Shown in pieces: positions 9,069 to 43,020 of a stretch of 64,000 nt of DNA. The notes under the pieces are model-generated. The model did not search any database and was not told where the DNA came from. It saw only the letters and a program-made list of their open reading frames with translations. The translations under genes were made by a program, and so were the position numbers. How positions within the stretch are numbered: position 1 is the stretch's first letter; each line of letters starts with the position of its first letter. The stretch is from the sequence record PQ821640. One strand, 5' to 3'. The stretch comes from Escherichia phage SD2.

Positions 9069-10046
9069 TTAAGCAACAGCCTGGTCTTCTTTTTCAGGGA
9101 AGATTAAACTTGCAATAACACCCAGTCCCAGAGTACCTAACACAATATACATACTGATCGTCGGATCAATGTGTGCTGGCAGGAAACTCACTTTTGCGTG
9201 CAGAGTTTCTGCAAACGGGTGATACATCAGTTTTACACCCACAAATACCAGGACTACGATAACTGCTTTCTCCAGATGAACCAAATATTTCAGTGCAACA
9301 CTAAGGACAAAGAACAGAGCACGTAGACCTAAAATTGCACACAGCATTGAAGAAAATACAAGCAGAGGTTCTTGTGTCACTGCAATTACTGCTGGAACAG
9401 AGTCTACTGCAAAGATTACGTCAACCATTTCCATTACAAACACACAAACCAATGCAGGAGTTGCTACACGAACACCATTTTTGATTGTGAAGAACTTCTC
9501 ACCATCCATCTGATCAGATACAGGGAACAGCTTACGAACAATGCGAGTAGCCCAGTGTTTAGAGTAATCAACTTCTGCGTCATTATCTCCAGCGAATACC
9601 ATTTTAGCGGCGCAGAAAAGGATGACCGCACCGAAGAAGATATTAACATACCAGCCCAAACTCAACAAGTAAGTACCTACTGCTACAAACACACCTCGGA
9701 AGACAATCGCACCTGCAATACCCCAAAGTAGAATCTTGTGCTGCAAGTGTGTGCTTTTAATACCAAAACTTGCGAATACTGCCACAAATACTACTAAGTT
9801 ATCTACAGAAAGAGATTTCTCCAACACATACCCACTCAAGAACAAGCTCGCAAAATCAGCACCGTGTTGGAAGTATACAAAACCATAGTAGGCTAACGAT
9901 ACCCCAATCCAGAAAATTGACCAGCCAATTGCAGATTTAAATGAAATTTCTTTGTTTTCTCTGTGTCCAAAGAAATCAATACAAATCGACAAGACTAAAA
10001 TACCCACTAAAACAACCACATCAATAATTGGGAAACCCAGTTGCAT
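9069..10046 (-). CDS. terC: TerC-family integral membrane protein
   Basis: 325 aa polytopic membrane protein with EKSLSVDN motif characteristic of TerC family. Confidence 0.75.
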   Translation of the reverse strand: MQLGFPIIDVVVLVGILVLSICIDFFGHRENKEISFKSAIGWSIFWIGVSLAYYGFVYFQHGADFASLFLSGYVLEKSLSVDNLVVFVAVFASFGIKSTHLQHKILLWGIAGAIVFRGVFVAVGTYLLSLGWYVNIFFGAVILFCAAKMVFAGDNDAEVDYSKHWATRIVRKLFPVSDQMDGEKFFTIKNGVRVATPALVCVFVMEMVDVIFAVDSVPAVIAVTQEPLLVFSSMLCAILGLRALFFVLSVALKYLVHLEKAVIVVLVFVGVKLMYHPFAETLHAKVSFLPAHIDPTISMYIVLGTLGLGVIASLIFPEKEDQAVA

Positions 10047-10123
10047 TCTTTTCTCCTCTTTAATGCGGAGGACAATCCTCCGCTCTATGTCGTATACTAT
10101 AAACTGTTTTTAAAGAAAGTCAA

Positions 10124-32955: not shown

Positions 32956-33129
32956 TTCATGTACGGAAATTCACCCTCTGAATAATATATTCAGAGTAAA
33001 TATTATTTTGTACTCTGTTAATAAATTATTTAATTTGTTTGTTGGATTATGATATCTGGTTTTTAAAAGGCATACTATCTCTTAACTACTACTTATAACA
33101 GAACAGTAAAATCATTTTTATAAAAAGGA

Positions 33130-33340
33130 CAAAATTATTTAAAGTTTTTACAGATTTTTGGATACAAATTTTGAAAATGAAAAGTTCAAGTTTGGTCAAA
33201 ATTATTTAAAGTTTTTGTATGTATTTCTATCCAGATTTTGAAAATGAAAACTTCAATTTTTTAAAAATTCCCCAGTTTATTTAAAGTTTTTTTACCTTTT
33301 TCCGTAGAAAAATCAAAAATGAAAAGTTCAATTTCGTGTT
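33130..33340 (+). repeat. three tandem ~68-70 bp repeats (ATTTAAAGTTTTT ... ATTTTGAAAATGAAAAGTTCAA)
   Basis: Direct repeat units at about 33130, 33198 and 33266; each contains the inverted repeat TTGAA..TTCAA. Confidence 0.6.
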
Positions 33341-33349
33341 TTTATGGGT

Positions 33350-33470
33350 ATGCGTATGATAATCATTCTCATTTGTAAATGAGAATCATTATCATTTAAT
33401 TATGTAAATGATAAGCATTCTCACTAAGAGAATGAGAATCATTAGCAAATGAGAATTTTTCTCATTTGCA
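33350..33470. promoter_or_regulatory. cluster of at least 4 Fur-box-like palindromes
   Basis: ATGATAATCATTCTCATT, AATGAGAATCATTATCATT, AATGATAAGCATTCTC, AATGAGAATCATTAGCAAATGAGAA versus Fur consensus GATAATGATAATCATTATC. Confidence 0.45.
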
Positions 33471-33479
33471 GAATAACGC

Positions 33480-34100
33480 GCAGGGGCGGTGTTTGTCTCG
33501 CGCTCCCGTGTCCCCTCGCCATACAATAAGAATAGCATAACCAACAACAAAAGCAAGCGATTATTTTTATCTTTACATTTCTTTACAAATTTATTTTAGA
33601 CGAGCTACCGGCGATCAACCTTCCAACCAGTGCCCCTGGTATGTTAGCCCCGCCTTTACGCCGTGGGGGTGGCGCTTCCTCTTCTGTATGTAAAACAGTA
33701 TAAGCCCGATCCCTGGGCTTGTCAAGATTATTTTTTGTTTTCTTGCCAGGATAGGACACCTAACCAAAAATACATGTCGCCCCGTGCCCCTGGCGGGATC
33801 TTGCTTTCCCCGCCGCCACTGCAAGCCCATAAATAACCATTTACGAACGTATCAAAGTGATCTATCTCTTCCACCTTATGATCGCCCAGGTTGAGAACGG
33901 TTTCAACCTTTAAGCCCGTTGCGCTTGCTACCTGGTGCACCGTGCCGCCTTGCCAGCCCAATGAGTGCATGAGATGTAAAGGAGTATTTGTCATGGTATC
34001 GCCCTTTCTTTGATGTGCGCCCTGGTTGGCGCGGTAGAAAGATAATAGCCGTTTCCTTTATAGATAGCAAGCAAAAAAGAAATGAAAAAAGATTAAAAAA
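33480..34100. other. GC-rich compositional island
   Basis: Visibly higher GC than the flanking AT-rich sequence. Confidence 0.5.
33728..33994 (-). CDS. hypothetical protein encoded in the GC-rich island
   Basis: ORF track 88 aa; overlapping alternative frames present. Confidence 0.3.
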   Translation of the reverse strand: MTNTPLHLMHSLGWQGGTVHQVASATGLKVETVLNLGDHKVEEIDHFDTFVNGYLWACSGGGESKIPPGARGDMYFWLGVLSWQENKK

Positions 34101-34104
34101 ATGG

Positions 34105-34166
34105 TTGACGTTCCTCACCTGGTAGCGTAGTATTCATCTTGTCGAGGGGCGGCAATAGTGCCGCTC
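34105..34166 (+). promoter_or_regulatory. cassette 1: promoter (TTGACG-17-TAGTAT) + 5' hairpin GGGCGGCAATAGTGCCGCTC
   Basis: Sigma70-like boxes; hairpin starts ~8 nt after the -10. Confidence 0.6.
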
Positions 34167-34188
34167 ATAACAGAAGAGAGAAATAATC

Positions 34189-34461
34189 ATGGCATCATAT
34201 AGCGCATCAATGATCGTAGCTGGCATCACTGGTAAACCTATGCGCGGTGGCGGATCTTTCGCTAACATCAATATTGATGGACGTTTATCCCTGGACGCAG
34301 CGATCACAGTGGCACGGGAAACGTTTAAAAAAGAATGTAATTTCAATAAACAAGATTATCTCGGTTTCGCTATTGAAAAAACCGCGCGATTTGTGGATTA
34401 TAAAAGCCCGAAAATGATCGACACTACACTAAAAGCGCAAGATGTAGCGTTTTTGCTTTAA
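34189..34461 (+). CDS. hypothetical protein (cassette 1)
   Basis: ORF track 90 aa. Confidence 0.55.
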   Translation: MASYSASMIVAGITGKPMRGGGSFANINIDGRLSLDAAITVARETFKKECNFNKQDYLGFAIEKTARFVDYKSPKMIDTTLKAQDVAFLL

Positions 34462-34464
34462 GTC

Positions 34465-34524
34465 TTGACACTGAAAAATAATTTGGTAATATATACTCCA
34501 TAAGGCGGGAAATGGTTTCCCGCC
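34465..34524 (+). promoter_or_regulatory. cassette 2: promoter TTGACA + hairpin GGCGGGAAATGGTTTCCCGCC
   Basis: Consensus -35, TG-extended -10; canonical hairpin core. Confidence 0.65.
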
Positions 34525-34546
34525 AAAACAAAGAAAGGGTAACACA

Positions 34547-34909
34547 ATGAGCAAGCAAATCAATACTATCATGTTAAACCTGGTATCTTTCCGCGATGAC
34601 GTGAAAAACCTTTCGCGTGATGCAGTGGATGCACGGATCGAAAGCTATCGCACACAGATCGCAACGTTACCGCTGAAACGTGATCAACATGCCGCTAATA
34701 TGATGCTTGATGCTATGATTAAAAAGATGATTCAATGTGATCTTACCCTGGCTTATGAATATGCTGGCGATCTCTTTGTAACATATAGCAAGCCCGTTCC
34801 AGGTATGAGCACCACGGAAGAATTGCATGCCTTAAATCTGCGACAAGATGCATGGGATAACATGCGCCGTGTTATGGTATGGGTAGAAAGCGGTAAAATT
34901 TACGAATAA
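34547..34909 (+). CDS. hypothetical protein (cassette 2)
   Basis: ORF track 120 aa; RBS AAGAAAGGG. Confidence 0.55.
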   Translation: MSKQINTIMLNLVSFRDDVKNLSRDAVDARIESYRTQIATLPLKRDQHAANMMLDAMIKKMIQCDLTLAYEYAGDLFVTYSKPVPGMSTTEELHALNLRQDAWDNMRRVMVWVESGKIYE

Positions 34910-34915
34910 AAACGG

Positions 34916-34969
34916 TTGACATTGCACTAAAACCTGATAAGCTATCTTAAAGCGGGAATTGTTCCCGCT
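34916..34969 (+). promoter_or_regulatory. cassette 3: promoter TTGACA + hairpin AGCGGGAATTGTTCCCGCT
   Basis: Hairpin variant preserves pairing. Confidence 0.55.
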
Positions 34970-34987
34970 TACATAGGATAAAACTTT

Positions 34988-35134
34988 ATGAAACAATATG
35001 TAATGAGTATTCATACCAAAAACGGCGCTACTGTTACGACTCCGGCACGGTTTGCACTTGTAAACCGTTGCAAGAGACTAAAACGAGAGTTAAAAAATAA
35101 CCGTGCAACGGGCTTTAAACGCTGGGGAGGATAA
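34988..35134 (+). CDS. small basic protein (cassette 3, ~48 aa)
   Basis: Manual ORF; stop is followed by GGAGG and the TTG start of the next gene; approximate. Confidence 0.4.
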   Translation: MKQYVMSIHTKNGATVTTPARFALVNRCKRLKRELKNNRATGFKRWGG

Positions 35135-35136
35135 TC

Positions 35137-35397
35137 TTGTTTTTTCTAAAAGTTTTTGATAATGTGATCGCTTTTGAACATGCTACAACGTTCGACCTGG
35201 CGAGATACGCTATCAGGTTTAAAGATAATGTTTATCCCCGTGCTGGCGGCGGTTACACTATTTTTAATCATCGCAACGCGCAACTGACTGATGTAACTAA
35301 TCCAGATCCTGGAGTGTATCGCATAGGCTGGCTACCGTCAAAAGACGCGGCAAGCATGTTTAAGTTATGTAAACTACTAACAGAAGAGGCGAACTAA
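35137..35397 (+). CDS. hypothetical protein (TTG start)
   Basis: ORF track 86 aa; TTG start 6 nt after GGGGAGGA. Confidence 0.5.
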   Translation: MFFLKVFDNVIAFEHATTFDLARYAIRFKDNVYPRAGGGYTIFNHRNAQLTDVTNPDPGVYRIGWLPSKDAASMFKLCKLLTEEAN

Positions 35398-35398
35398 C

Positions 35399-35953
35399 AT
35401 GGGGCGTGAATATGTGATCCAGTCCTGGGTAAAGCATGACGCAAATGATCCGCGCATAATACCAGATGACATGATCGATCACATGGTGGGGTATAGCGGG
35501 GAGCAGATAGGAAATCGAGCGGCAAAGAGCAACGGCAACACCAGAACGAGATCCGTTCGCCCTGGATGGCTGGCAAATGGTAACGCTGACATTGCAAGCG
35601 CCGCAGATCCAAGCGATGACGCTAAAAATAATCCCTTGTATAACATTGATCCGGCTTTTAAGGTGTTGGAAGAGTATCCCGCTAAATTAGCCGCACTAGA
35701 TAAAGCATACGAAGAAAAACGGGTGGCATGGACTGTATACAACACCGCTAAAATGGTGCTAGATGCAAAATTGATTAAAGCCCAGGAGAAGATCAATAAA
35801 CTTGTTACCATAGCGCAAGAGGAAGACCAGGACGACCAGGAGGAAGAGGAAGAAATCATGCCTATCCTGGAAGAGGAAGAGATCCAGCCATACATGCCGA
35901 CGGAAGAGGAAAAAAGACAAGCCTTAAAAAATTATAAAAATTGTATTGTGTAA
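35399..35953 (+). CDS. hypothetical protein with acidic D/E-rich C-terminal region
   Basis: ORF track 184 aa; RBS GAAGAGG. Confidence 0.55.
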   Translation: MGREYVIQSWVKHDANDPRIIPDDMIDHMVGYSGEQIGNRAAKSNGNTRTRSVRPGWLANGNADIASAADPSDDAKNNPLYNIDPAFKVLEEYPAKLAALDKAYEEKRVAWTVYNTAKMVLDAKLIKAQEKINKLVTIAQEEDQDDQEEEEEIMPILEEEEIQPYMPTEEEKRQALKNYKNCIV

Positions 35954-35956
35954 GGC

Positions 35957-36013
35957 TTGACATATGCAAACAAGCCCCGTAATATGTACCACATAGAGCG
36001 GGGCAACGCCCCA
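35957..36013 (+). promoter_or_regulatory. cassette 4a: promoter TTGACA-17-TAATAT + hairpin GAGCGGGGCAACGCCCC, no ORF directly after
   Basis: Followed ~20 nt later by a second promoter; possible short leader or small RNA. Confidence 0.5.
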
Positions 36014-36034
36014 TAAGGTGAAATAAAAAATCAC

Positions 36035-36062
36035 TTGACACCTGAAATCAGTAAGCTATAAT
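36035..36062 (+). promoter_or_regulatory. cassette 4b: consensus promoter TTGACA-16-TATAAT
   Basis: Exact -35 and -10 hexamers. Confidence 0.65.
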
Positions 36063-36099
36063 GCTTATATAAATTAAAGCGTTACTAAGGAATAAAATC

Positions 36100-36465
36100 A
36101 TGGCTAAAAATATTAATGTTTCTGCTTATGCTACCCTGGCTAATACTGCTAAAATTGAACTATCCAGCATTGAAGCGGTACATATTAGCGCCCGTCGCTG
36201 GTTTCAAAAGTCTTATGGTAATACTTATTTCTCTTTGATGGTTGACGTTGAGATCGGCGGTAAACTGATTGAAGTCGTTAACGTTCCGTTTCATTATGGT
36301 TATGGTGATCATTTTGATACCGTTGCCCTGGAAGAGTTTAGCAAGGTTATCAACCTGGAAGGTAAAGAGTTTTCAAATTATGCTTATCTTTCCCGTTTTT
36401 GCCGTGATAATGGGATCGCTGTATACAGTCATGCAAGCGATGTTAAACGTAAAAAAGATTTATAA
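36100..36465 (+). CDS. hypothetical protein
   Basis: ORF track 121 aa. Confidence 0.55.
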   Translation: MAKNINVSAYATLANTAKIELSSIEAVHISARRWFQKSYGNTYFSLMVDVEIGGKLIEVVNVPFHYGYGDHFDTVALEEFSKVINLEGKEFSNYAYLSRFCRDNGIAVYSHASDVKRKKDL

Positions 36466-36469
36466 AAAG

Positions 36470-36535
36470 CATTGACAGCACGAATAAAAAGAGTAAAATG
36501 TTTCATATCAGGACGGGGGAACGGTTTCCCCTCCT
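36470..36535 (+). promoter_or_regulatory. cassette 5: promoter TTGACA + hairpin GGACGGGGGAACGGTTTCCCCTCC
   Basis: Hairpin variant with altered stem that still pairs. Confidence 0.55.
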
Positions 36536-36554
36536 AACAAAGAGAGAAATAAAA

Positions 36555-36737
36555 ATGGCTAAATGCACTATTTGTAAGAAAGAAATAGTATTAGTTCCAA
36601 GCGCCCGTGAACGTGCCGCTAAGTTCGGTGGCAAACCGTCAGACTATACGAAAATGTTTACTACCCATGCAGCTTGTCAAGTAGCAAAACGTTCACAAGA
36701 AAGCGTAGAATTAATGCGTAAACTTTCCAAAAAATAA
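36555..36737 (+). CDS. small protein MAKCTICKKE... (cassette 5)
   Basis: Start at Met20 of track ORF, after hairpin and RBS AAGAGAGAAA. Confidence 0.5.
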   Translation: MAKCTICKKEIVLVPSARERAAKFGGKPSDYTKMFTTHAACQVAKRSQESVELMRKLSKK

Positions 36738-36741
36738 GTAT

Positions 36742-36803
36742 TGACAAAGTATTTTATTACTATATAATGGTTTACATCGAGAGCGGGAATAGTTCCCGCC
36801 TCA
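36742..36803 (+). promoter_or_regulatory. cassette 6: promoter TTGACA-16-TATAAT + hairpin GAGCGGGAATAGTTCCCGCCTC
   Basis: Consensus boxes. Confidence 0.65.
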
Positions 36804-36823
36804 CTGAAAAAGAGATTAACATC

Positions 36824-37063
36824 ATGGCTAAATCTAAAATGTACAACGGTCACAAAAATAAAACTCATTGGAATGTAAGCCTTTGGATTAATAACGATCC
36901 AGGTTTTTATAATATGGCAAAAGAATTTATAGCCGTGAACAACAATAAAGATAACGCCGCGCGTGAAATGATGTCATTACTTAACGAAATGGGCCAAAAT
37001 ACTACGCCAGATGGCTATAAATTCAGTAAAACCAGTATCCGCGCCGCTATGGTAGGAATGTAA
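36824..37063 (+). CDS. hypothetical protein (cassette 6)
   Basis: Start at MAKSK, Met20 of track ORF. Confidence 0.5.
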   Translation: MAKSKMYNGHKNKTHWNVSLWINNDPGFYNMAKEFIAVNNNKDNAAREMMSLLNEMGQNTTPDGYKFSKTSIRAAMVGM

Positions 37064-37072
37064 TAAAAGCAG

Positions 37073-37132
37073 TTGACAACGTTTTTTAATCTGGTATAGT
37101 TTATCACATAGGGCGGGAAATGGTTTCCCGCC
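37073..37132 (+). promoter_or_regulatory. cassette 7: promoter TTGACA + TGgTATAGT extended -10 + hairpin GGGCGGGAAATGGTTTCCCGCC
   Basis: Canonical hairpin. Confidence 0.65.
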
Positions 37133-37154
37133 AAATGAAAGAAAGGTTATCATT

Positions 37155-37382
37155 ATGGCTATCGTTATTGTTCGCGTATCCGGCACGGTTGGAATCTCCC
37201 AGGTAGTAGCAGTTATCACCGAGAAGAAAGGGGATGATCTTCACTCCTCCTTGAATAGCTGGGCGGTCGCTAATTTCGGGCAATGGTCGAGCGTTGAGTA
37301 TATCGAATCCTACCAGGTGCCAACGATTAGCCTAACCGATCTGAATGTTGATCGCTTATTGTGCCTGGATGGATTAAACTAA
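37155..37382 (+). CDS. hypothetical protein (cassette 7)
   Basis: ORF track 75 aa. Confidence 0.55.
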   Translation: MAIVIVRVSGTVGISQVVAVITEKKGDDLHSSLNSWAVANFGQWSSVEYIESYQVPTISLTDLNVDRLLCLDGLN

Positions 37383-37390
37383 AAATAATC

Positions 37391-37448
37391 TTGACAAGAT
37401 AACTAAAATCAGTAAAATGTAATGCATAGGGCGGCAATAGTGCCGCTC
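37391..37448 (+). promoter_or_regulatory. cassette 8: promoter TTGACA + hairpin GGGCGGCAATAGTGCCGCTC
   Basis: Hairpin identical to cassette 1. Confidence 0.6.
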
Positions 37449-37469
37449 ATAGTAAGAGAGATTATCAAA

Positions 37470-37685
37470 ATGGCTAATATCCGCACACTGTTAAAAAATG
37501 CAAGTCAAGTTTTATTTTCAGATGACGAGTATTTCAACAAAGACATTACAGGCGTGAAAAATTTAAAAGACGTGAAGGATGTTATCGGTATCCGTGGATC
37601 TTTACGTAAAGGTGACATATACGGTAACAAGGTGCAATATAAACTATCAAAAGATTATGATTTTACTTTGACAATTATTTCATAA
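37470..37685 (+). CDS. hypothetical protein (cassette 8)
   Basis: Start at MANIRT, Met17 of track ORF. Confidence 0.5.
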   Translation: MANIRTLLKNASQVLFSDDEYFNKDITGVKNLKDVKDVIGIRGSLRKGDIYGNKVQYKLSKDYDFTLTIIS

Positions 37686-37691
37686 AACTAC

Positions 37692-37752
37692 TTGCAAACC
37701 TGGTAAAATAAAGTAAACTATATTCATTAAGGCGGTGGAATAGCCCACCGCC
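37692..37752 (+). promoter_or_regulatory. cassette 9: promoter-like TTGCAA + hairpin GGCGGTGGAATAGCCCACCGCC
   Basis: Stem differs from canonical copy on both arms (GGTGG / CCACC) and still pairs. Confidence 0.5.
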
Positions 37753-37775
37753 TAACAAAGAGAAGAGGAAACATC

Positions 37776-37946
37776 ATGATCACTTTCGCTACCCGTGAAG
37801 CCGCTCGCAACGTTGCACGTAAAGTTAACGCCGCCAACCTGGGCGCTACGCTTAAAGCCCCGGTGAAAGATGAATCAGGAAAATGGATCTTTCCTGGTCT
37901 GCGTCACGCTGATAAGCTGGGGACATTAACGTTAAAAAATAAATAA
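37776..37946 (+). CDS. small protein ~56 aa (cassette 9)
   Basis: Manual ORF, RBS AAGAGGAAA; approximate. Confidence 0.4.
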   Translation: MITFATREAARNVARKVNAANLGATLKAPVKDESGKWIFPGLRHADKLGTLTLKNK

Positions 37947-37953
37947 TATCCGC

Positions 37954-38020
37954 TTGACAGTAGCATCATTTATAAGTAAAGTAACAACAACGGCGGGAAA
38001 ATTATTGGTTATATATTGCA
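37954..38020 (+). promoter_or_regulatory. cassette 10: promoter TTGACA + degenerate hairpin remnant (GGCGGGAAAATTATTGG)
   Basis: Hairpin 3' arm lost. Confidence 0.4.
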
Positions 38021-38076
38021 AGCATGATCATAACTTTGGCAAAATATCATAACGTAGCGTAATCGAGAGGAAAAAC

Positions 38077-38214
38077 ATGAACGCATCACAGCAGATCGAA
38101 AAATTCAACCGCAGCAAGGCGCGTAAAAATTGGAACGAAGAGATCACCAAGAAAGGCGATAAGCGGAACAAAACAAAAAGAGATCGCAGCACAAAAAGAC
38201 ACTGGAACGAATAA
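38077..38214 (+). CDS. very basic 45-aa protein (K/R-rich)
   Basis: Manual ORF MNASQQIEKFNRSKARKNW...; RBS GAGAGGAAAAA; followed by terminator; approximate. Confidence 0.4.
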   Translation: MNASQQIEKFNRSKARKNWNEEITKKGDKRNKTKRDRSTKRHWNE

Positions 38215-38216
38215 CA

Positions 38217-38245
38217 AAAAGGGCGCAATAAGCGCCCTTTTAGCT
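38217..38245 (+). terminator. rho-independent terminator
   Basis: AAAAGGGCGCAATAAGCGCCCTTTT. Confidence 0.7.
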
Positions 38246-38332
38246 TATATAGAGGCTTGTTACCCATAGGCAATGGTAACGCCAGGGCAAGCCTATAAAT
38301 CAACGTTAGACGGCTTTACAGGAGCTTTAAAA

Positions 38333-38515
38333 ATGAGATTAGAAGAAATAAGCAAGGCACTAGCCCAGGGGCAAAGGTTATGCGCCCGATATCGTGATCA
38401 ATATGGCTTTATAACTAGCGGCGTGATCCTGGGGATTGAAGGCAATAAAATTTTTATTGACACGTTGAAAAACGTTGTATATAGTGACAATATAATCTCA
38501 ATAAAACATATATGA
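38333..38515 (+). CDS. hypothetical protein
   Basis: Start at MRLEEISK after AGGAG RBS, within track ORF 38273-38515. Confidence 0.45.
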   Translation: MRLEEISKALAQGQRLCARYRDQYGFITSGVILGIEGNKIFIDTLKNVVYSDNIISIKHI

Positions 38516-38523
38516 GGCAAGAA

Positions 38524-38925
38524 ATGAAAAAATTATTGATCGCTGGTTTAATCTCTTTTGGCATGGTTGGAACATCTAGCGCGGCGATATCCTCCACAGT
38601 AGCAGAATTAAGCGCCGTTGATGCAATGGAAAACGTCATGATCATTAATAACGCGATCCCCGATGAAATCATGGAGGATTCACACATGATCGCTTATGGT
38701 GCTGTTACACAATTAACGGCAAAAATAGATAAATCTATTGTTAATGGCTTAAATGAAGATGTACCATGTGAAATTATTACCAGTGTGCTAACGACTCAAA
38801 ATTTTACGCCGTGGCTAAAAAGTATTCAAAAGGTACACAGCACCGCCGCAGATCGTAGCAATGAAAAACTAGTGTCAGCACTTGCAACGTATACCCTAGC
38901 AAAATGTACCGAGATAAAAGGTTGA
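38524..38925 (+). CDS. secreted protein with signal peptide
   Basis: MKKLLIAGLISFGMVGTSSAA signal peptide; RBS GAGG. Confidence 0.5.
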   Translation: MKKLLIAGLISFGMVGTSSAAISSTVAELSAVDAMENVMIINNAIPDEIMEDSHMIAYGAVTQLTAKIDKSIVNGLNEDVPCEIITSVLTTQNFTPWLKSIQKVHSTAADRSNEKLVSALATYTLAKCTEIKG

Positions 38926-38949
38926 CAATATAGAAAGCACGTTATAAGA
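38922..38949 (+). promoter_or_regulatory. promoter TTGACA-16-TATAAG (no hairpin)
   Basis: Sigma70-like boxes upstream of 38971 ORF. Confidence 0.5.
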
Positions 38950-38970
38950 TACACAACAAAGGAGAACCAC

Positions 38971-39273
38971 ATGAACGGCATAGCTAAAACGTTTTTTCTT
39001 TTTTCTGGTGTAAATGATCCATCAATAAAAGTCGATAGTGTAAAAGAAAACAATACTATCACCGCTAAATTGTTTCAAGATGAAACAAATAACGTGCTAA
39101 TCATTAATCTTAAAGAAATAACGAAAGGTTATTATACTATTGCTTACCATGCGATCTATCATGCGGGTACTAGTGAGGAAGTGCAAACAAGCAACAACGA
39201 AAGCGCGGCGCTACCTGGTGATCTGGTGCTGGGCGTTATCAGTTTAATTGTCAATGATTTTTTTAAGGAGTAA
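38971..39273 (+). CDS. hypothetical protein
   Basis: ORF track 100 aa; RBS AAGGAGAA. Confidence 0.55.
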   Translation: MNGIAKTFFLFSGVNDPSIKVDSVKENNTITAKLFQDETNNVLIINLKEITKGYYTIAYHAIYHAGTSEEVQTSNNESAALPGDLVLGVISLIVNDFFKE

Positions 39274-39277
39274 AACC

Positions 39278-39373
39278 ATGCCCTATTTACATTTATTTTT
39301 CGGTATCTTATTGACAGGATCTTTTTTCTTCTGTATGCTTGTTTCTATTGTAAACCACGTTTTAAGACATTAA
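39278..39373 (+). CDS. tiny hydrophobic peptide (~31 aa)
   Basis: Manual ORF MPYLHLFFGILLTG...; approximate. Confidence 0.25.
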   Translation: MPYLHLFFGILLTGSFFFCMLVSIVNHVLRH

Positions 39374-39382
39374 GGAAACAGC

Positions 39383-39502
39383 ATGAAAATTATTCCCGTA
39401 CAGTATAGCGTAATAAATCCAGCATATGAGGAAGGAAGGAAAACAAGCATGGCTTTATGTTGTATTACTACTATAGCCATGTTATTATATATTGTGTTTT
39501 AA
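39383..39502 (+). CDS. tiny hydrophobic peptide (~39 aa)
   Basis: Manual ORF MKIIPVQYSV...CCITTIAMLLYIVF; approximate. Confidence 0.25.
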   Translation: MKIIPVQYSVINPAYEEGRKTSMALCCITTIAMLLYIVF

Positions 39503-39531
39503 TAGGTTTTATAGTTGTACGCTTTAAAGGC

Positions 39532-39560
39532 TTGACAATTTTTTGTTATGCTTTAAAATA
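39532..39560 (+). promoter_or_regulatory. promoter TTGACA + TAAAAT
   Basis: Followed by mini-hairpin CGGCAAAGGCCG. Confidence 0.45.
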
Positions 39561-39602
39561 TATCTTGAAAACGGCAAAGGCCGCAAACAAAAGGGTAAAA
39601 TT

Positions 39603-39926
39603 ATGAAATCTGTGATCGGTGTTTATTTGGATAACTCTGATTTTTTCTATCATCGTGCGCGTTTCCTTGATGCGATTGAAATGATAGAATCAGGCTTTAA
39701 AGAGTATCGCCTTGCACATGATGACCTGGAAGCATTACAGGGCAATAGTGTTTTTACATTGCAAGCTAAAGCACTATGTAAAAGCCGGATCGACATTGCG
39801 AGCAAAAAGATAGAACGCGGCATGTCCTGGTTACGCACCGCAGAAATTAACATGGGGCAATGGTACGGCGAAAACTTAGAAAATAAACTCACTTTTGTAA
39901 ATGTAGAAAATCTTAAAGATTATTGA
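39603..39926 (+). CDS. hypothetical protein
   Basis: Start at MKSVIG, Met21 of track ORF. Confidence 0.5.
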   Translation: MKSVIGVYLDNSDFFYHRARFLDAIEMIESGFKEYRLAHDDLEALQGNSVFTLQAKALCKSRIDIASKKIERGMSWLRTAEINMGQWYGENLENKLTFVNVENLKDY

Positions 39927-39989
39927 TTGACAGCACGCCTGATAAGGAGTATATTGTATCTCATAGAGCGGGGAAATGGTTTCCCCGCC
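39927..39989 (+). promoter_or_regulatory. cassette 11: promoter TTGACA + hairpin AGCGGGGAAATGGTTTCCCCGCC
   Basis: Hairpin variant with one extra G-C pair. Confidence 0.6.
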
Positions 39990-40008
39990 TTAACAGAAGA
40001 GATAAGAT

Positions 40009-40293
40009 ATGAAAATCACAAAAGCACTTTTCAACTATGCAGCACGTCGCGGATTATGCTTATCCGTTGAAAATTTAGGAAAAGAAGATTTTTTGTGCTT
40101 TTGGGAGCTTGAGAATGATAATGAGTGGATCTTCTCTTATTCTATCTGCAAAGATCAAAATGGTTGCTTGTTAACCTGGCACGGTAATATCTATTTGCCG
40201 GAAGAAATAAAACAAGAATTACCAGGCACGATCATGACTGAGAAACAGCTTAAGGAAGTGATCAATTTTGTAAGGCAAAACATTAAAAAATAA
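40009..40293 (+). CDS. hypothetical protein (cassette 11)
   Basis: ORF track 94 aa. Confidence 0.55.
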   Translation: MKITKALFNYAARRGLCLSVENLGKEDFLCFWELENDNEWIFSYSICKDQNGCLLTWHGNIYLPEEIKQELPGTIMTEKQLKEVINFVRQNIKK

Positions 40294-40294
40294 T

Positions 40295-40355
40295 TTGACA
40301 GTAGGCAAACAACGTAGTAAAGTTTACCACATAGGGCGGGAAATGGTTTCCCGCC
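40295..40355 (+). promoter_or_regulatory. cassette 12: promoter TTGACA + hairpin GGGCGGGAAATGGTTTCCCGCC
   Basis: Canonical hairpin. Confidence 0.65.
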
Positions 40356-40373
40356 AGAATAGAGAGAACTAAA

Positions 40374-40478
40374 ATGATTATTCTTACCATGATGTGCGCG
40401 GCGGTTATTATTCCTTTGATAACGCTTATTGTTTCTGAGATCGATGATCTTCTCTTTGAAAGAAGTTTAAAAAAGTAA
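40374..40478 (+). CDS. tiny membrane peptide (~34 aa, cassette 12)
   Basis: Manual ORF MIILTMMCAAVIIPLITLIVSE...; approximate. Confidence 0.35.
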   Translation: MIILTMMCAAVIIPLITLIVSEIDDLLFERSLKK

Positions 40479-40540
40479 TTGACAACGGCTAATAAGCTGA
40501 TAATATGTATCACATAGGGCGGGGCAATAAGGCAACGCCC
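40479..40540 (+). promoter_or_regulatory. cassette 13: promoter TTGACA-TAATAT + hairpin GGGCGGGGCAATAAGGCAACGCCC
   Basis: Hairpin variant with enlarged loop. Confidence 0.55.
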
Positions 40541-40558
40541 ACTAATGAGGGTAGCATC

Positions 40559-40663
40559 ATGTTAGAGAAAATTTTCACGGTTGTAATAGTGGGCCTGGCG
40601 TTATCGGTTGGAGTGATTGCAACTATGGCTAACATGATCCTATCTTCCCACGGTATCGGCTAA
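40559..40663 (+). CDS. tiny membrane peptide (~34 aa, cassette 13)
   Basis: Manual ORF MLEKIFTVVIVGLALSVGVIATMANMI...; approximate. Confidence 0.35.
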   Translation: MLEKIFTVVIVGLALSVGVIATMANMILSSHGIG

Positions 40664-40677
40664 AAGAGAAACACAAC

Positions 40678-41064
40678 ATGAAAACAGAAATCATTATTGA
40701 AATCATCAACGGTTATAAAGAAGCCTTTATTTTTGCTGAATCAGCAAGGGATCATGAAGGTAATTTTATTGATAACTTAGACGATTATGATTTTTCAGAT
40801 CAAGCCCATCAACGGATCATTAATGACGTAGCGGCTTATTGTGATGCCAATGATGCTGCTATCTCTGAGGCAATGAGCGACGGCGCAACAGCAAACCAGA
40901 TCGGGAATGATTTACATTTTACCCGTAACGGTCACGGCGTAGGTTTTTGGGATCGCCCTGAAATATACACTACTAACACCGCCAACCGCCTAACAAATGC
41001 AGCTAGATTAATGCCATCGGTGCATGCTTACATTGGTGAAGATAATTTGATTTATATTGAATAA
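40678..41064 (+). CDS. hypothetical acidic protein
   Basis: ORF track 128 aa. Confidence 0.55.
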   Translation: MKTEIIIEIINGYKEAFIFAESARDHEGNFIDNLDDYDFSDQAHQRIINDVAAYCDANDAAISEAMSDGATANQIGNDLHFTRNGHGVGFWDRPEIYTTNTANRLTNAARLMPSVHAYIGEDNLIYIE

Positions 41065-41070
41065 AAAGTG

Positions 41071-41129
41071 TTGACACCGATCCCCAATATGGTATTATTT
41101 ACCACGTAGGCGGGAAATGGTTTCCCGCC
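41071..41129 (+). promoter_or_regulatory. cassette 14: promoter TTGACA + hairpin GGCGGGAAATGGTTTCCCGCC
   Basis: Canonical hairpin. Confidence 0.65.
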
Positions 41130-41153
41130 AGGTAATCAAAAAAGGTAAACATT

Positions 41154-41543
41154 ATGCGCAACCTGATTTCTGTTTCTAACGTTGAAAAATTTCAATCCTT
41201 GCAGGGTATCATTAACAACGTAGCGCCTTTTTTAGTCAATGGCTTGATTGCAAAGATGAAAAATAAACATCATGCGGCATGGTCTGCTTATTGCTTTGAT
41301 AATGATGAAAAAGCGGCTGAAATGATGTTAAATATGCTTTTGGATAGTGTAGAATCATCTTTACCGGAAAACATCGCAGAAGAGATCACCTATCGTTATA
41401 ATATGGCGATCACTTACCAGGAGGTTGCGCAATTCAACATGATGGATGATGACGAACAACAGGATCAAGAAATGTTCTGGGAGTATGCAGATCGTCAATC
41501 GGCTTTTGATGAAAAGTTAGCGATGTATTATAACGAATATTAA
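41154..41543 (+). CDS. hypothetical protein (cassette 14)
   Basis: ORF track 129 aa. Confidence 0.55.
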   Translation: MRNLISVSNVEKFQSLQGIINNVAPFLVNGLIAKMKNKHHAAWSAYCFDNDEKAAEMMLNMLLDSVESSLPENIAEEITYRYNMAITYQEVAQFNMMDDDEQQDQEMFWEYADRQSAFDEKLAMYYNEY

Positions 41544-41557
41544 TACACGGTAAAAGA

Positions 41558-41585
41558 AAGGGGCGCACTAAGCGCCCTTTTTTGT
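41558..41585 (+). terminator. rho-independent terminator
   Basis: AAAGGGGCGCACTAAGCGCCCTTTTTTTG. Confidence 0.7.
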
Positions 41586-41861
41586 ATTCTTTTTTCACGA
41601 TGGAAACAACACGTAAAGAATAGGCGTAAAGGTGGCGTAAAACAGCCTAAAACCGATTATAACCGCTTAAACAAGGTAGGGATGATTAATCACCTTACCA
41701 GGATGAAAAAGCCGTTATAAAGCTATCTAGAGCGTTTAAAGCACATAGGAAATAATTTGCTTTTTATCTTGCCTTTTATTCTGCTTTTGATTATTATTAT
41801 GGAACGGGCGGCACCTGGGAGCAGGGGAAGATAATCACCGGACGATCTTATTATATATTGA

Positions 41862-41880
41862 TAGCTTCCACCTATCAAAC
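41862..41880. promoter_or_regulatory. inverted repeat TGATAGCTTCCACCTATCA
   Basis: 6-bp arms TGATAG/CTATCA; second copy at 42753. Confidence 0.4.
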
Positions 41881-41928
41881 AACAAAACATTAAAGAAATA
41901 AACTATCAAATCTTTACAATCTCACCTA

Positions 41929-41987
41929 TTGACACCGGATCGCCCTTATACTAAGATGTATCACGTAGGCGGGAAGTGGTTTCCCGC
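41929..41987 (+). promoter_or_regulatory. cassette 15: promoter TTGACA-TATACT + hairpin GGCGGGAAGTGGTTTCCCGC
   Basis: Hairpin variant. Confidence 0.6.
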
Positions 41988-42006
41988 TCAATATAGGAAT
42001 CATATC

Positions 42007-42237
42007 ATGATCGAACAAATTAAACGCGCTGAGGCTATTAACGGCAATGTGATCTACTCTGTCAGCAATAACGAAAAAGGCGTACCTTATGCAGCGGTGA
42101 TAGTACAGCCTGACGGTGATTATTGGTTTACTGTATACGGATCTTATTCTTTTGGGCGTCCAGTACATGATAAAATTTTGAAAGTAGCTAATCCCACTGG
42201 GAAGAATATCACAGTAGAAAAATTCTTTGAAAAATAA
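42007..42237 (+). CDS. hypothetical protein (cassette 15)
   Basis: Start at MIEQIK, Met27 of track ORF. Confidence 0.5.
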   Translation: MIEQIKRAEAINGNVIYSVSNNEKGVPYAAVIVQPDGDYWFTVYGSYSFGRPVHDKILKVANPTGKNITVEKFFEK

Positions 42238-42312
42238 CTTGCTTTATAGCCTCTGTTAATTTATAGTTATCGTGTAGGGCAAGCAATTTTAAACGGTAAA
42301 CGAGGAATCTCC

Positions 42313-42696
42313 ATGAGCAATATCATCAACCTGGCGGCTACTGTAAACGGTAAAGATTTTAACGGCGCTGTAGATCGTGATCCTATGTGGTACTTGTCAG
42401 TATTTAAAGGCGATCTGGTTGAAGTTAGAACAACCGAAGGGTATAGCGATGATTATAAATGCGAGATCCATTTACATAACTGGTACACGGGGAAAACTTA
42501 TGCGCTAAACCATGCGTTTATCGGGAAAATTGAATATCGCGAGATGATCGACGAAGAAACGGGGCAAGATTTTAGCGATTATGTTTATATTCGTTCAGAA
42601 ACATTAGCCGAACGTTTGATCGAGAAAATGAAAGCAAAAAATAAAATTAATTTAGCTCATTGGCTTGATATAACAAACGATCCGGCTTATAAGTAA
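42313..42696 (+). CDS. hypothetical protein
   Basis: ORF track 127 aa; RBS ACGAGGAA. Confidence 0.55.
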   Translation: MSNIINLAATVNGKDFNGAVDRDPMWYLSVFKGDLVEVRTTEGYSDDYKCEIHLHNWYTGKTYALNHAFIGKIEYREMIDEETGQDFSDYVYIRSETLAERLIEKMKAKNKINLAHWLDITNDPAYK

Positions 42697-42711
42697 ATAA
42701 CATTTCACACC

Positions 42712-42740
42712 AGGGCGCACAAAGCGCCCTTTCTTTTTTA
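42712..42740 (+). terminator. rho-independent terminator
   Basis: AGGGCGCACAAAGCGCCCTTTCTTTTTT. Confidence 0.7.
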
Positions 42741-42752
42741 CCTAAATAAAGA

Positions 42753-42772
42753 TGATAGCTTTTACCTATCAA
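42753..42772. promoter_or_regulatory. inverted repeat TGATAGCTTTTACCTATCA
   Basis: Second copy of TGATAG-N-CTATCA site, again just downstream of a terminator. Confidence 0.4.
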
Positions 42773-42939
42773 AAACGTTCACCGAAAAAAGTGAATAGAT
42801 CGCGGTATCGAGCTAATCAAGGAGCAGATGAACAACCATACCATGAAGATCATAAGGCGCTTACAACGTGTTTTAGACCGCTTATTTTTAATTTCTTCAT
42901 GTAACTATCTGGCAAAAACAGCCTTTTTCTTGTCTTTCC

Positions 42940-43020
42940 TCTTAAATGATAATCATTCTTATTTATAGCTGATTATTTATGCAATAAACTGAATAATGTA
43001 ATAATGATAATCATTCTTAA
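42940..43020. promoter_or_regulatory. two Fur-box-like sites (AAATGATAATCATTCTTAT; ATAATGATAATCATTCTTAA)
   Basis: 14-16 of 16-18 positions match Fur consensus. Confidence 0.45.

Follow-up and report, generated by a model that had tools for sequence, protein, structure and literature searches.

The region at approximately 34.1-42.0 kb of Escherichia phage SD2 is best explained as an array of self-contained early-gene cassettes. The window analysed (64,000 nt of record PQ821640) belongs to a Justusliebigvirus-like, phi92-like myovirus, of the phi92/phAPEC8 type of E. coli phages. About 19 small early-gene cassettes are present in the array, 14 of which carry a conserved hairpin at the start of the message. 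In at least two subfamilies of phages, the fold of this hairpin is preserved on the strand that is transcribed, and its distance to the promoter is constant. The mRNA itself is its most likely site of action. Our leading reading, which is tentative, is that of mobile early-promoter cassettes whose transcribed hairpin protects or standardises the 5' end of the message.

The cassettes display a constant order: a near-consensus sigma70 promoter, a start-site motif C(A/G)TAG, a GC-rich hairpin with a stem of 5-10 bp, a leader with a Shine-Dalgarno sequence (SD) and a small ORF. The succession of promoter, transcribed hairpin, ribosome-binding site and small ORF had been put forward in a preliminary description of the sequence and is confirmed here, as are its hairpin positions (14/14). 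In the hairpin units, the -35 hexamer is TTGACA in 12 of 14 cases, the spacer measures 16-17 nt and the -10 hexamer reads TAnnnT. Between the -10 hexamer and the stem there are 10-14 nt (mode 11) rather than the 6-10 nt initially reported; the single exception (7-8 nt) is the unit at 34916, where CATAGG is moreover located 3' of the hairpin. This flank, formerly considered invariant, exists in six variants (CATAGG, CATAGA, CGTAGG, CATAAG, CATCGA and TATCAG). The ORFs, said to span 34-130 aa and to lack recognisable domains, reach 184 aa, and PF08200 (T7 gp1.1 family) and DUF7249 were each recognised in one of them; all of the ORFs tested against PHROGs (10/10) match families of unknown function. 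The leader (17-22 nt) is A-rich (53% A), with a purine-only tract, a modest SD and an A at -3. The geometry was evaluated on a non-redundant set of 96 units (12 loci): predicted position +4/+5 is the first of the stem in 69/96 units, 3-4 unpaired nt are left at the predicted 5' end in 72/96, the hairpin lies 17-22 nt from the ATG in 80/89 and the UTR length is 38-50 nt. In line with the proposed location at the mRNA 5' end, the hairpin would lie 3-4 nt from the predicted end.

The 22-nt hairpin core occurs five times at ≤3 mismatches, versus none in 100 shuffles. A covariance model seeded on six hairpin copies was used to scan the 64 kb and recovered 13 of the 14 + strand copies, all within 34.1-42.0 kb, in addition to one unreported - strand copy at 10056-10092; there were no further credible hits in the 64 kb. 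The 34147 copy was missed solely because its 5' flank differs. The hairpin has no match in Rfam, and no description of it was found in the literature searched.

Pairing is kept in 97.8% of cells, compared to 24-71% when the partner columns are slid. Cells altered on both sides number 45 versus 12.4±3.5 after shuffling, a value reached in 0 of 500 shuffles, and the covariation score is 0.264 versus 0.143 after shuffling and 0.02-0.08 after sliding. Stem classes that differ in sequence (GGCGGGAAA, GGGCGGCA, GAGCGGCGGA, GGGGCG, GCGGAGGA and GGCGGTGG) occupy the same site, G.U pairs are found in 36 stem cells, the spacing from GGCGG to CCGCC at the stem base is 6, 8 or 11 nt, and the G-rich arm lies on the 5' side in every case, with no flipped copy. 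The sense strand folds better in 54 of 72 fixed windows and the antisense strand in 15 (p ~1e-5). Compensatory changes, variable stem-base spacing, G.U pairs and sense-strand advantage all support the earlier suggestion of selection on structure and not on a fixed DNA sequence; the compensatory cells exceed those of shuffles, and the stem is kept in related phages.

The element is found at the same position in Phapecoctavirus, rV5 and a Certrevirus, and was retained at this position across Stephanstirmvirinae, Vequintavirus and Certrevirus despite diverged flanks and loops. This retention, the multiple independent compensated stem variants and the nature of the sole broken copy in the window, a deletion scar (37992-38002) and not a decayed copy, make it very unlikely that the hairpin is a functionless passenger of a promoter module spread by duplication or gene conversion, with its palindrome kept by template-switch (quasi-palindrome) correction. 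Such a passenger would nevertheless fit the many near-identical copies, the promoters that work without a hairpin and the documented inter-unit exchange; concerted evolution through this recombination could inflate the similarity between hairpin copies.

A role in transcription was also considered, in which the hairpin would attenuate or terminate upstream read-through, or form a nascent-RNA pausing or antitermination element like nut or put. Its promoter-proximal position is that of nut and put sites, intrinsic terminators number only three in the array, versus about 19 promoters, so that read-through would build up if not attenuated, and the PeSL stem-loops of T4-type phages lower lacZ expression as strongly as rrnB T1 (PMC2839356). 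Such a role is nonetheless improbable. No T-run follows any hairpin copy on either strand, and the phage uses a distinct family of canonical terminators where it does terminate (GGGCGC-N5-GCGCCC and a T-run), which rules out the hairpin as an intrinsic terminator. The fixed distance to its own -10 would be unneeded if upstream transcripts were the target, no boxA-like sequence was found, the loops are not boxB-like as judged by sequence and not by a formal test, and few terminators are available to antiterminate.

All units of the array are on the + strand; the bit scores below are those of the covariance model. Unit 1 (34105-34461) is composed of a promoter at 34105-34133 (TTGACG-17-TAGTAT), a hairpin at 34147-34166 (GGGCGGCA-atag-TGCCGCTC, one G.U) and an ORF at 34189-34461 (90 aa). 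It is a hybrid, relatives having 250-550 bp of extra cassette at the junction 34147-34149. In Unit 2 (34465-34909), the promoter (34465-34492) precedes a hairpin at 34504-34524 (GGCGGGAAA-tgg-TTTCCCGCC, -14.0 kcal/mol, 51.2 bits) and an ORF at 34547-34909 (120 aa). Unit 3 (34916-35953) associates a promoter at 34916-34943 (TTGACA-16-TAAGCT) and a hairpin at 34951-34969 (AGCGGGAA-ttg-TTCCCGCT, 20.5 bits) with three ORFs, at 34988-35134 (48 aa), 35137-35397 (86 aa) and 35399-35953 (184 aa). The weak hairpin of Unit 4 (35957-36465), located at 36000-36012 (GGGGC-aac-GCCCC, 13.7 bits) behind the promoter 35957-35985, has no ORF of its own; a second, consensus promoter (36035-36062), devoid of hairpin, is followed by the ORF 36100-36465 (121 aa), and relatives have a 269 bp extra cassette at 36100-36106. 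Unit 5 (36472-36737) contains a promoter at 36472-36499, a bulged hairpin at 36510-36535 (GGA-C-GGGGGAA-cgg-TTTCCCCTCC) and an ORF at 36555-36737 (60 aa); since approximately 36565-36761 lacks an alignment block in phi92, AMO3598, 92CQ and PaulScherrer, this cassette is absent there. Unit 6 (36741-37063) has a full-consensus promoter (36741-36768), a hairpin at 36779-36802 (GAG-A-GCGGGAA-tag-TTCCCGC-CTC) and the DUF7249 ORF (36824-37063, 79 aa). Unit 7 (37073-37382) combines a promoter at 37073-37100, a canonical hairpin at 37112-37132 (53.5 bits) and an ORF at 37155-37382 (75 aa). Unit 8 (37391-37685) carries a promoter at 37391-37418, the hairpin GGGCGGCA-atag-TGCCGCTC at 37429-37448 and an ORF at 37470-37685 (71 aa); its cassette is absent in phage muut, as 37435-37703 lacks an alignment block, with joints at 37434 and 37704. 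In Unit 9 (37692-37946), a weaker promoter (37692-37719, TTGCAA-16-TAAACT) precedes a hairpin at 37730-37753 (AGGCGGTGG-aatagc-CCACCGCCT, -17.7 kcal/mol) and an ORF at 37776-37946 (56 aa).

The segment 37954-38241, where a degenerate remnant had been noted near 38000, is a deletion junction: the promoter 37954-37982 is followed by a truncated 5' arm (GGCGGGAAAA, 37992-38002), the ORF 38077-38214 (45 aa; PF08200, E 5.5e-11) and a bidirectional intrinsic terminator (38217-38241). All relatives compared (6/6) have about 320 bp more at 37993-38000. In phi92, this extra stretch starts with an intact hairpin, GGCGGGGAA-tgg-TTTCCCGCC (L002 promoter at 6882), and includes gene gp236. Early promoters devoid of hairpin follow between 38457 and 39926 (38457-38485, 38922-38950 and 39532-39559, the last with only a 4-bp mini-hairpin, CGGC-aaag-GCCG, downstream), with ORFs at 38524-38925, 38971-39273, 39278-39373, 39383-39502 and 39603-39926; the hairpin is therefore an optional module. 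Unit 10 (39927-40293) resumes the pattern with a promoter at 39927-39955, a hairpin at 39968-39988 (GCGGGGAAA-tgg-TTTCCCCGC, 30.8 bits) and an ORF at 40009-40293 (94 aa). Unit 11 (40295-40478) has a promoter at 40295-40323, a canonical hairpin at 40335-40355 (52.8 bits) and a hydrophobic ORF at 40374-40478 (34 aa); AMO3598 has two distinct units that align with 40284-40354, which designates Unit 11 as a unit-to-unit deletion or replacement joint. Unit 12 (40479-41064) displays a promoter at 40479-40506, a long variant hairpin at 40517-40540 (GGGCG[GG]GC-aataag-GC[AA]CGCCC, tandem G.A, 14.7 bits) and ORFs at 40559-40663 (34 aa, hydrophobic) and 40678-41064 (128 aa). Unit 13 (41071-41583) consists of a promoter at 41071-41098, a hairpin at 41109-41129 (40.3 bits), an ORF at 41154-41543 (129 aa) and an intrinsic terminator at 41555-41583. 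Unit 14 (41929-42730) contains a promoter at 41929-41957, a hairpin at 41968-41988 (GGCGGGAAG-tgg-TTTCCCGCT, two G.U, 38.5 bits), ORFs at 42007-42237 (76 aa) and 42313-42696 (127 aa) and a terminator at 42712-42730; the first ORF is absent in AMO3598 and 92CQ, as approximately 41970-42263 lacks an alignment block, and the joint (41969) lies inside the hairpin. Outside the array, the - strand copy (10035-10123, 44.5 bits) comprises a promoter at 10123-10096 (TTGACT-16-TATAGT), CATAGA, a hairpin at 10083-10065 (GCGGAGGA-ttg-TCCTCCGC) with three stem positions altered on both sides relative to the canonical one, the SD GAGGAG and an ATG at 10046; the gene under its control encodes a membrane protein of the TerC family.

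When close relatives are aligned, block boundaries lie inside the cassette units, often within the hairpin; the units are the recombination joints where relatives gain, lose or swap cassettes. The repeated 70-100 nt unit, especially its near-identical hairpin, supplies the homology. Selection at the DNA level, for a recombination or cruciform site used in cassette shuffling or for a repressor operator overlapping +5 to +25, may be envisaged from this concentration of joints, from the inverted repeat, a classic operator form, and from the suggestion of the PeSL authors that a recombination protein might target the stem-loop (PMC2839356). We consider it a poor candidate: ordinary homologous recombination already predicts joints in repeats and needs no special site for them, evolvability by itself is only weakly selected, the varying half-site spacing and mid-stem changes are incompatible with a dimeric operator, G.U pairs and folding advantage are strand-specific, and the position is fixed relative to the predicted transcription start and the start codon.

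Protection or standardisation of the mRNA 5' end is favoured by the promoter geometry, the conserved pairing, the sense-strand bias, the absence of T-runs and a stem kept while loops swap. Host RNA polymerase should use the near-consensus sigma70 promoters at once after infection; the proposed label of early host takeover derives solely from these promoters. An RNA paired almost from its 5' end would offer RppH and 5'-end-dependent RNase E less access to the unstructured AU-rich leader; base-paired 5' ends are poor substrates for both enzymes (PMC3997798; PMC5360333), and RNase E plays a major part in degrading T4 early mRNAs (PMC3014915). With the hairpin, all cassettes, newly acquired ORFs included, would share one folded 5' end and have an accessible ribosome-binding site; in read-through transcripts, a cut in the AU-rich RNA derived from the promoter would restore this protected end. 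The stem would begin just beyond the downstream edge of the open-complex bubble, the closest to +1 that a strong promoter permits. The unpaired nucleotides at the predicted 5' end are only borderline compatible with protection, 3-4 nt reportedly being the upper limit for a protective 5' stem-loop according to Emory et al. in 1992. E. coli RppH needs at least two unpaired nt and prefers three or more, so that the predicted end would suffice for it, which counts against protection. The B. subtilis enzyme has the same requirement and preference (PMC3997798). Scanning RNase E readily bypasses a simple stem-loop (PMC9943677), hence a bare hairpin would not protect against an enzyme already engaged at the 5' end. 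The array promoters at 36035, 37954, 38457, 38922 and 39532 have no hairpin or only a vestige, and most early promoters of rV5 and the Certrevirus lack it, so that early expression can proceed without the hairpin; nor would the unflipped G-rich arm be expected from a purely structural role.

The hairpin could instead be a common tag by which a trans-acting RNA-binding factor, of phage or host, handles the early messages as a single regulon: a nuclease or translational repressor shutting them off at the early-to-middle switch, or a protective protein through which the hairpin would truly block RNase E, a bound protein being a good obstacle and a bare stem-loop a poor one (PMC9943677). A single element is common to at least 14 messages and lies in one place, 17-22 nt ahead of the start codon, the GGCGG/CCGCC stem base and arm orientation are invariant, and shared motifs on phage early mRNAs have precedents in the T4 RegB and RegA sites and the gp43 operator hairpin (PMC3014915). 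We nevertheless find this explanation rather doubtful. Loops vary among orthologous units and subfamilies (TAG/CAC, ATAG/ATGG/ACGG): the Unit 6 orthologue of ESCO13, ZCKP1 and AMO3598 keeps the stem with loop CAC instead of TAG, and rV5 keeps stem and position with other flanks, no CATAG and loops tgt or aac. This lack of loop and CATAG conservation weakens the idea of a sequence tag. Stem length and mid-stem sequence vary as well, the same arrays hold many early promoters devoid of hairpin, and no candidate RNA-binding protein was identified, short of a systematic search.

The cassettes have a published counterpart in the PeSLs, composite early-promoter/stem-loop cassettes of T4-type phages (PMC2839356, PMC4122927). 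This precedent, the recombination joints, the conservation in rV5 and Certrevirus and the - strand copy at about 10.07 kb are additions to the preliminary description. Block boundaries inside units have likewise been described for PeSL cassettes, and the deletion, insertion and swapping of cassettes via the repeated unit is the process described for them. The SD2 array represents a variant of this known kind of promoter–stem-loop cassette.

The cis element proves to be real and well defined; it is widely conserved and is absent from Rfam and from the papers searched. A promoter scan revealed a run of plus-strand sigma70-like promoters extending from 34105 to 41929, nearly all of which display TTGACA, a 16-17 nt spacer and TAnnnT, and a GC-rich hairpin was located downstream of fourteen promoters of the array. 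Within these fourteen units, the -35 is TTGACA in 12, the spacer measures 16-17 nt, the -10 conforms to TAnnnT and the upstream sequence is A/T-rich. A 22-nt core occurs five times with three mismatches or fewer, versus none in 100 shuffles. A covariance model seeded with six in-register copies was run unfiltered across the whole window; it recovered 13 of the 14 copies and one more at 10056-10092 on the minus strand, with no other credible match in the window. The copy missed, at 34147, carries a hairpin identical to that of the 37429 copy and a different 5' flank. The promoter scan, the core count, the covariance model search and the presence of the hairpin after 14 promoters together bear out the 14-unit array reported in the preliminary description.

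The MAFFT alignments of the hairpins (A1 and A2) were gapped out of register with the stems and were not used for pair counts, and the seed alignment (A3), in which one additional A had been inserted into the 5' flank of two of the six rows, served for seeding only. All pairing statistics were obtained from the real sequences realigned by the covariance model (A5). No match at E<=1 was obtained among 4227 Rfam covariance models over 33000-43000 on both strands, and no prior description was found in the literature searched on phi92, phAPEC8, rV5 or PVP-SE1 phages. The rV5 paper gives a list of promoters alone, and for phi92 and ESCO13 the records carry RBS features, without promoters or stem-loops.

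The anatomy of the units can be summarized as follows. The stem starts 10-14 nt past the -10 hexamer (mode 11) in 13 of the 14 window units, a gap wider than the 6-10 nt originally proposed; the exception is the unit whose -35 begins at 34916, where the stem starts 7-8 nt after the -10 and CATAGG is placed 3' of the hairpin. The stems comprise 5-10 bp, with folding energies of -6.5 to -17.7 kcal/mol. The transcription start was assumed to be the purine of the conserved C(A/G)TAG, predicted 7-8 nt beyond the -10, so that the transcripts would open with RUAG and then enter the stem. The geometry was measured on a non-redundant set of 96 units, drawn from the window and from 11 related loci. With the start site so predicted, the stem begins at +4/+5 in 69 of the 96 units, three to four 5' nucleotides are left unpaired in 72 and none to two in 19, the 5' UTR is 38-50 nt long, and the hairpin always lies within its own transcript. 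The hairpin and the start codon are separated by 17-22 nt in 80 of 89 units. A accounts for 53% of the leader, in which positions -14 to -8 form a purine-only tract; the best match to AGGAGG reaches 4/6 in 71 of the 89 units, A occupies position -3 in 96% of them, and GCT (26 units) and AAA (13 units) are frequent second codons. Many cassette ORFs, such as those at 34189, 36100, 36555, 36824, 37155 and 37470, start with ATGGCTAAA, ATGGCTAAT, ATGGCTATC or ATGGCA, and such shared starts reflect either selection on translation initiation or homology co-transferred by unit-to-unit recombination.

The hairpin is absent or vestigial at five promoters (36035, 37954, 38457, 38922 and 39532). The last of these (39532-39603) is followed by a 4-bp mini-hairpin, CGGC-aaag-GCCG, which looks orthologous to the GGGCA-aaag-TGCCC unit of the minus-strand promoter at 18160 in the rV5 locus and which may be a decaying copy. 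In all copies of the window and of the related loci L001-L013, the G-rich arm is 5' and the C-rich arm 3', and this orientation is never flipped; none of the explanations considered accounts for it.

No T-run follows the hairpin at any copy. The intrinsic terminators of the array belong to a family of their own, GGGCGC-N5-GCGCCC followed by a T-run, and are located at 38217-38241 (bidirectional), 41555-41583 and 42712-42730, thereby splitting the array into three transcription blocks. On these sequence grounds, a missing T-run and a separate terminator family, the reading of the hairpins as terminators was rejected. Attenuation of transcription by the hairpin is a distinct proposal, ranked below the roles that the hairpin may play on the finished message and considered improbable. 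Just past the bidirectional terminator, a larger imperfect hairpin at 38240-38330 (GGCTTGTTACC-CATAGGCAAT-GGTAAC-GCCAGGG-CAAGCC) includes CATAGG and lies upstream of the ORF at 38333-38515, with no obvious promoter. A divergent minus-strand consensus promoter at 33697-33725 (TTGACA-17-TATACT) is conserved, with matching sites in phi92, ESCO13, ZCKP1 and PsgM04F, the four more distant relatives scanned, and displays a GCGCC-N7/8-GGCGT hairpin about 21 nt beyond its -10. The co-oriented 88-aa ORF at 33994-33728 starts about 270 bp further upstream and therefore cannot be driven by this promoter.

Whether the helix or its sequence is conserved was evaluated on the related phages. At the same site, relatives present differing stems, namely GGCGGGAAA/TTTCCCGCC, GGGCGGCA/TGCCGCTC and GAGCGGCGGA/TCCGCCGCTC, with the further classes GGGGCG/CGCCCC, GCGGAGGA/TCCTCCGC, GGCGGTGG/CCACCGCC and a long form containing tandem G.A. 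In the model-guided alignment (110 matches, 71 distinct rows), 97.8% of the cells are paired versus 24-71% after sliding of the partner columns, both sides are changed in 45 cells versus 12.4±3.5 in shuffled alignments (a value reached in 0 of 500 shuffles), and the covariation score is 0.264 versus 0.143 shuffled and 0.02-0.08 slid; the alignment being model-fitted and the sequences related, these figures overstate independence, and the qualitative result is clear. The conservation of a helix at this site is thus supported. The compensatory conservation in related phages that the preliminary description had proposed to look for is present, both in the doubly changed cells and in the multiple stem classes. 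The GGCGG and CCGCC half-sites are 6, 8 or 11 nt apart, a variation that a fixed geometry could not tolerate, and a fixed-spacing dsDNA operator was accordingly rejected; a role of the element at the DNA level ranks low and is hardly probable.

Strand specificity is supported less cleanly. A first comparison of sense and antisense folds used boundaries set on the sense fold and was repeated with fixed windows: of the 72 unique cases, each of 31 nt, 54 give the more stable fold as sense RNA and 15 as antisense. The alignment contains 36 G.U cells, an argument tempered by a recurrent and real class of internal C.A mismatch, GGCGG-C-GGA/TCC-A-CCGCC. A strand-symmetric mismatch count gave 12 G.T versus 16 A.C and was set aside, the stem finder having over-extended into the flanks.

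The element extends well beyond the phage under study. Over its 6 kb core, the region shares 93-96% identity with about 25 complete genomes of E. coli myoviruses, 145-150 kb in size, among which are phage inny, ALITA, PaulScherrer and phi92 (Justusliebigvirus, Stephanstirmvirinae), and the matching records annotate the region only as hypothetical proteins. The 'Campylobacter phage' records A145, A110a and A150 (host C. jejuni) are also about 95% identical to the region and probably correspond to mislabelled or contaminated isolates. Many copies are present in ESCO13 and ZCKP1 (Phapecoctavirus), PsgM04F and phi1_175008. In the Certrevirus PcCB7V, two copies are found among about 14 array promoters, the rest of which keep CATAGA without the hairpin. 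Phage rV5 carries about five copies (GGCGGGAA/TTCCCGCC), located 10 nt after the -10, with different loops and no CATAG. The element predates the genus. In orthologous units, defined by the same downstream gene, the stem is kept and the loop entirely swapped (TAG versus CAC; ATAG, ATGG or ACGG). These swaps and the rV5 copies devoid of CATAG indicate that conservation applies to the helix and to where it sits, and extends neither to the flank nor to the loop. The reading of the conserved apical AAUGGU motif as a protein site was weakened by the same orthologue swaps and by the different rV5 loops.

The ORFs of the array encode 34-184 aa. Pfam matches above the curated threshold were obtained for two of them only: a 45-aa ORF of the T7 gp1.1 family at about 38077-38214 (PF08200, 'Bacteriophage 1.1 protein', E 5.5e-11) and an ORF at about 36824-37063 matching DUF7249. 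The initial impression that the small ORFs have no recognisable domain fails for these two; all ten ORFs tested against PHROG match families of unknown function. PF08200 is an early-gene family also present in T7. The additional unit at 10035-10123, on the minus strand, drives a TerC-family membrane protein gene within a tightly packed minus-strand cluster. Its 5' arm, GGAGGA, resembles an SD and its 3' arm, UCCUCC, an anti-SD, with the true SD, GAGGAG, 8 nt downstream; an alternative pairing masking the RBS is therefore conceivable.

The stretch 33900-42800 was aligned to six close relatives. Cassette content varies between phages that are 95% identical, and nearly every block boundary falls within a promoter-hairpin-leader unit; for about ten boundaries the distance from the -35 is +39 to +59, the position of the hairpin. 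The first unit is a hybrid, created when a cassette that phi92 still carries was lost; three further cassettes (36555-36737, 37470-37685 and 42007-42237) are each lacking in some relatives. The unit with its -35 at 40295 aligns over 71 nt (40284-40354) to two units of the close relative AMO3598 located about 780 bp apart with three genes between them, the signature of a unit-to-unit homologous deletion. What had been taken for a degenerate hairpin remnant near 38000 is the left edge (37992-38002) of a deletion of about 320 bp, which took away the remainder of the hairpin and the greater part of one gene. That the hairpin is a passenger sequence without function, merely carried by such exchanges, is ranked low and appears very improbable.

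The consensus promoters, the conserved helix on the transcribed strand at a fixed 5'-proximal site, the stereotyped open leader and the recombination joints within the units are all observed. The role that we favour, as a tentative proposal, is an action of the helix in cis on the mRNA 5' end. RppH and 5'-end-dependent RNase E act poorly on base-paired 5' ends (PMC3997798; PMC5360333), and RNase E is a major route of early-mRNA decay during T4 infection (PMC3014915). Without the hairpin, the A/U-rich leaders would be exposed to decay. The stem would start just past the downstream edge of the open-complex bubble, presumably as near to +1 as a strong promoter permits. Several points stand against this cis-acting role: the predicted overhang of 3-4 nt is borderline, many sister promoters are devoid of the hairpin, the arm orientation is never flipped, and RNase E bypasses simple stem-loops while scanning (PMC9943677), for which reason the form of the stabiliser idea that treats the hairpin as a scanning obstacle was dropped. 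A trans-acting reader of the hairpin would answer both the RNase E bypass and the fixed arm orientation; variable loops and flanks weaken this explanation, which we consider unlikely. One could imagine, as a similarly doubtful proposal, that the hairpin serves as an address label, a phage or hijacked host protein reading the 5'-proximal GGCGG/CCGCC helix on every cassette message. Such a protein would decide the fate of the messages, either by protecting them during host-mRNA degradation or by silencing the early regulon at the switch to middle genes, and any ORF recombined into a cassette would automatically become a member of the regulon. The interest of the element would climb sharply if a dedicated reader protein exists.

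The coliphages concerned (about 145-150 kb; phi92, phAPEC8, rV5 and relatives) find wide use in phage therapy and in screens for defence systems, and the early regions of phages of this type are annotated only as strings of hypothetical proteins. Their early genes are likely to fulfil anti-defence and host-takeover functions, and the stereotyped, conserved 5' UTR module provides a concrete handle on early-gene expression. The module also explains the sites at which cassettes are exchanged between phages. On the practical side, the unit constitutes a compact, naturally insulated expression cassette for E. coli, and with the hairpin model, the early promoters of this group and the limits of its cassettes can be annotated.

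A number of known systems can be compared to the element. The T7 phi10 leader hairpin and synthetic 5' hairpins act as 5'-terminal stabilisers. So do the stem-loops of the ompA and papA 5' UTRs (Emory, Bouvet and Belasco 1992; Bricker and Belasco 1999, both as relayed in PMC3997798). The likeness lies in a GC-rich hairpin a few nucleotides from the 5' end, followed by an unstructured RBS. Stabilisers of this kind work with any stable stem, which fits the covariation; structure rather than sequence is indeed retained here, as judged by covariation, multiple stem classes and orthologue loop swaps. The element differs from them as a multi-copy family on at least 14 messages, with an invariant orientation of the G-rich arm and a predicted 3-4 nt overhang that is borderline for protection.

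The lambda nut sites (boxA-boxB/N) and HK022 put sites likewise place a small RNA hairpin just 3' of phage early sigma70 promoters. They comprise a boxA element and a boxB hairpin with a conserved loop, upstream of terminators, whereas the loops vary here and are, in our assessment, not boxB-like pentaloops; the element is present once per gene instead of once per operon, with almost no downstream terminators (three in the array). No boxA-like match at two substitutions or fewer was found in the array except one unrelated, and we know of no N-like protein in this phage group. The element is thus not built as a nut/boxB-type antitermination site. T4 early-gene control relies on RegB sites, RegA sites and the gp43 operator hairpin (PMC3014915). 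These share with the array the principle of one cis element common to the 5' regions of numerous early messages and the concept of coordinated decay or repression. In T4, this part is played by short sequence motifs placed at the SD or by a loop-specific operator, whereas structure is kept and the loop varies here. To our knowledge, no cognate protein is known for the element. Lambdoid morons, which are promoter-gene-terminator inserts, resemble the TerC-like gene at about 10.0 kb, equipped with its own promoter-hairpin unit within a packed opposite-strand cluster. The insertion of morons is thought to be illegitimate, and unlike the present units they have no conserved flanking module.

The closest parallel is found in the PeSLs, mobile regulatory cassettes of the T4-type phages RB49, phi1, PST and nt-1 (Arbiol et al. 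2010, PMC2839356; Comeau et al. 2014, PMC4122927). In RB49 and phi1, they combine strong sigma70 early promoters and stem-loops, are dense in plastic ORFan regions, and have crossovers mapped between the -10 and the ATG and also inside the loop (PMC2839356; PMC4122927). The array shares with them a single intergenic unit made of AT-rich upstream sequence, strong sigma70-type early promoter, GC-rich stem-loop, SD and ATG, its dense repetition among the small ORFs of unknown function that fill a plastic region, and insertion, deletion or replacement joints inside the units, stem-loop included. The lineages differ, T4-type phages on one side and Stephanstirmvirinae and Vequintavirinae on the other. 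The position of the PeSL stem-loop is variable (five subclasses), mostly upstream of +1, between or over the -35 and -10, and hence outside its own transcript; here the stem-loop is always transcribed, at a fixed site (+4/+5 in 69 of 96 units), and its copies make up a single family in sequence and structure across subfamilies. One PeSL stem-loop was shown to behave like a strong terminator; the hairpins described here lack a T-run and coexist with a separate terminator family. The promoter, the stem-loop with SD and ATG, the plastic region and the joints of a PeSL are thus all found in the array, and its variable position is not. The idea of mobile regulatory cassettes is thereby extended past T4-type phages, with a stem-loop that can be a transcribed RNA element instead of a terminator. 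The units are best filed with the PeSL kind of mobile cassette, as representatives of another lineage with a transcribed 5'-UTR hairpin, and the difference is anatomical and probably functional as well.
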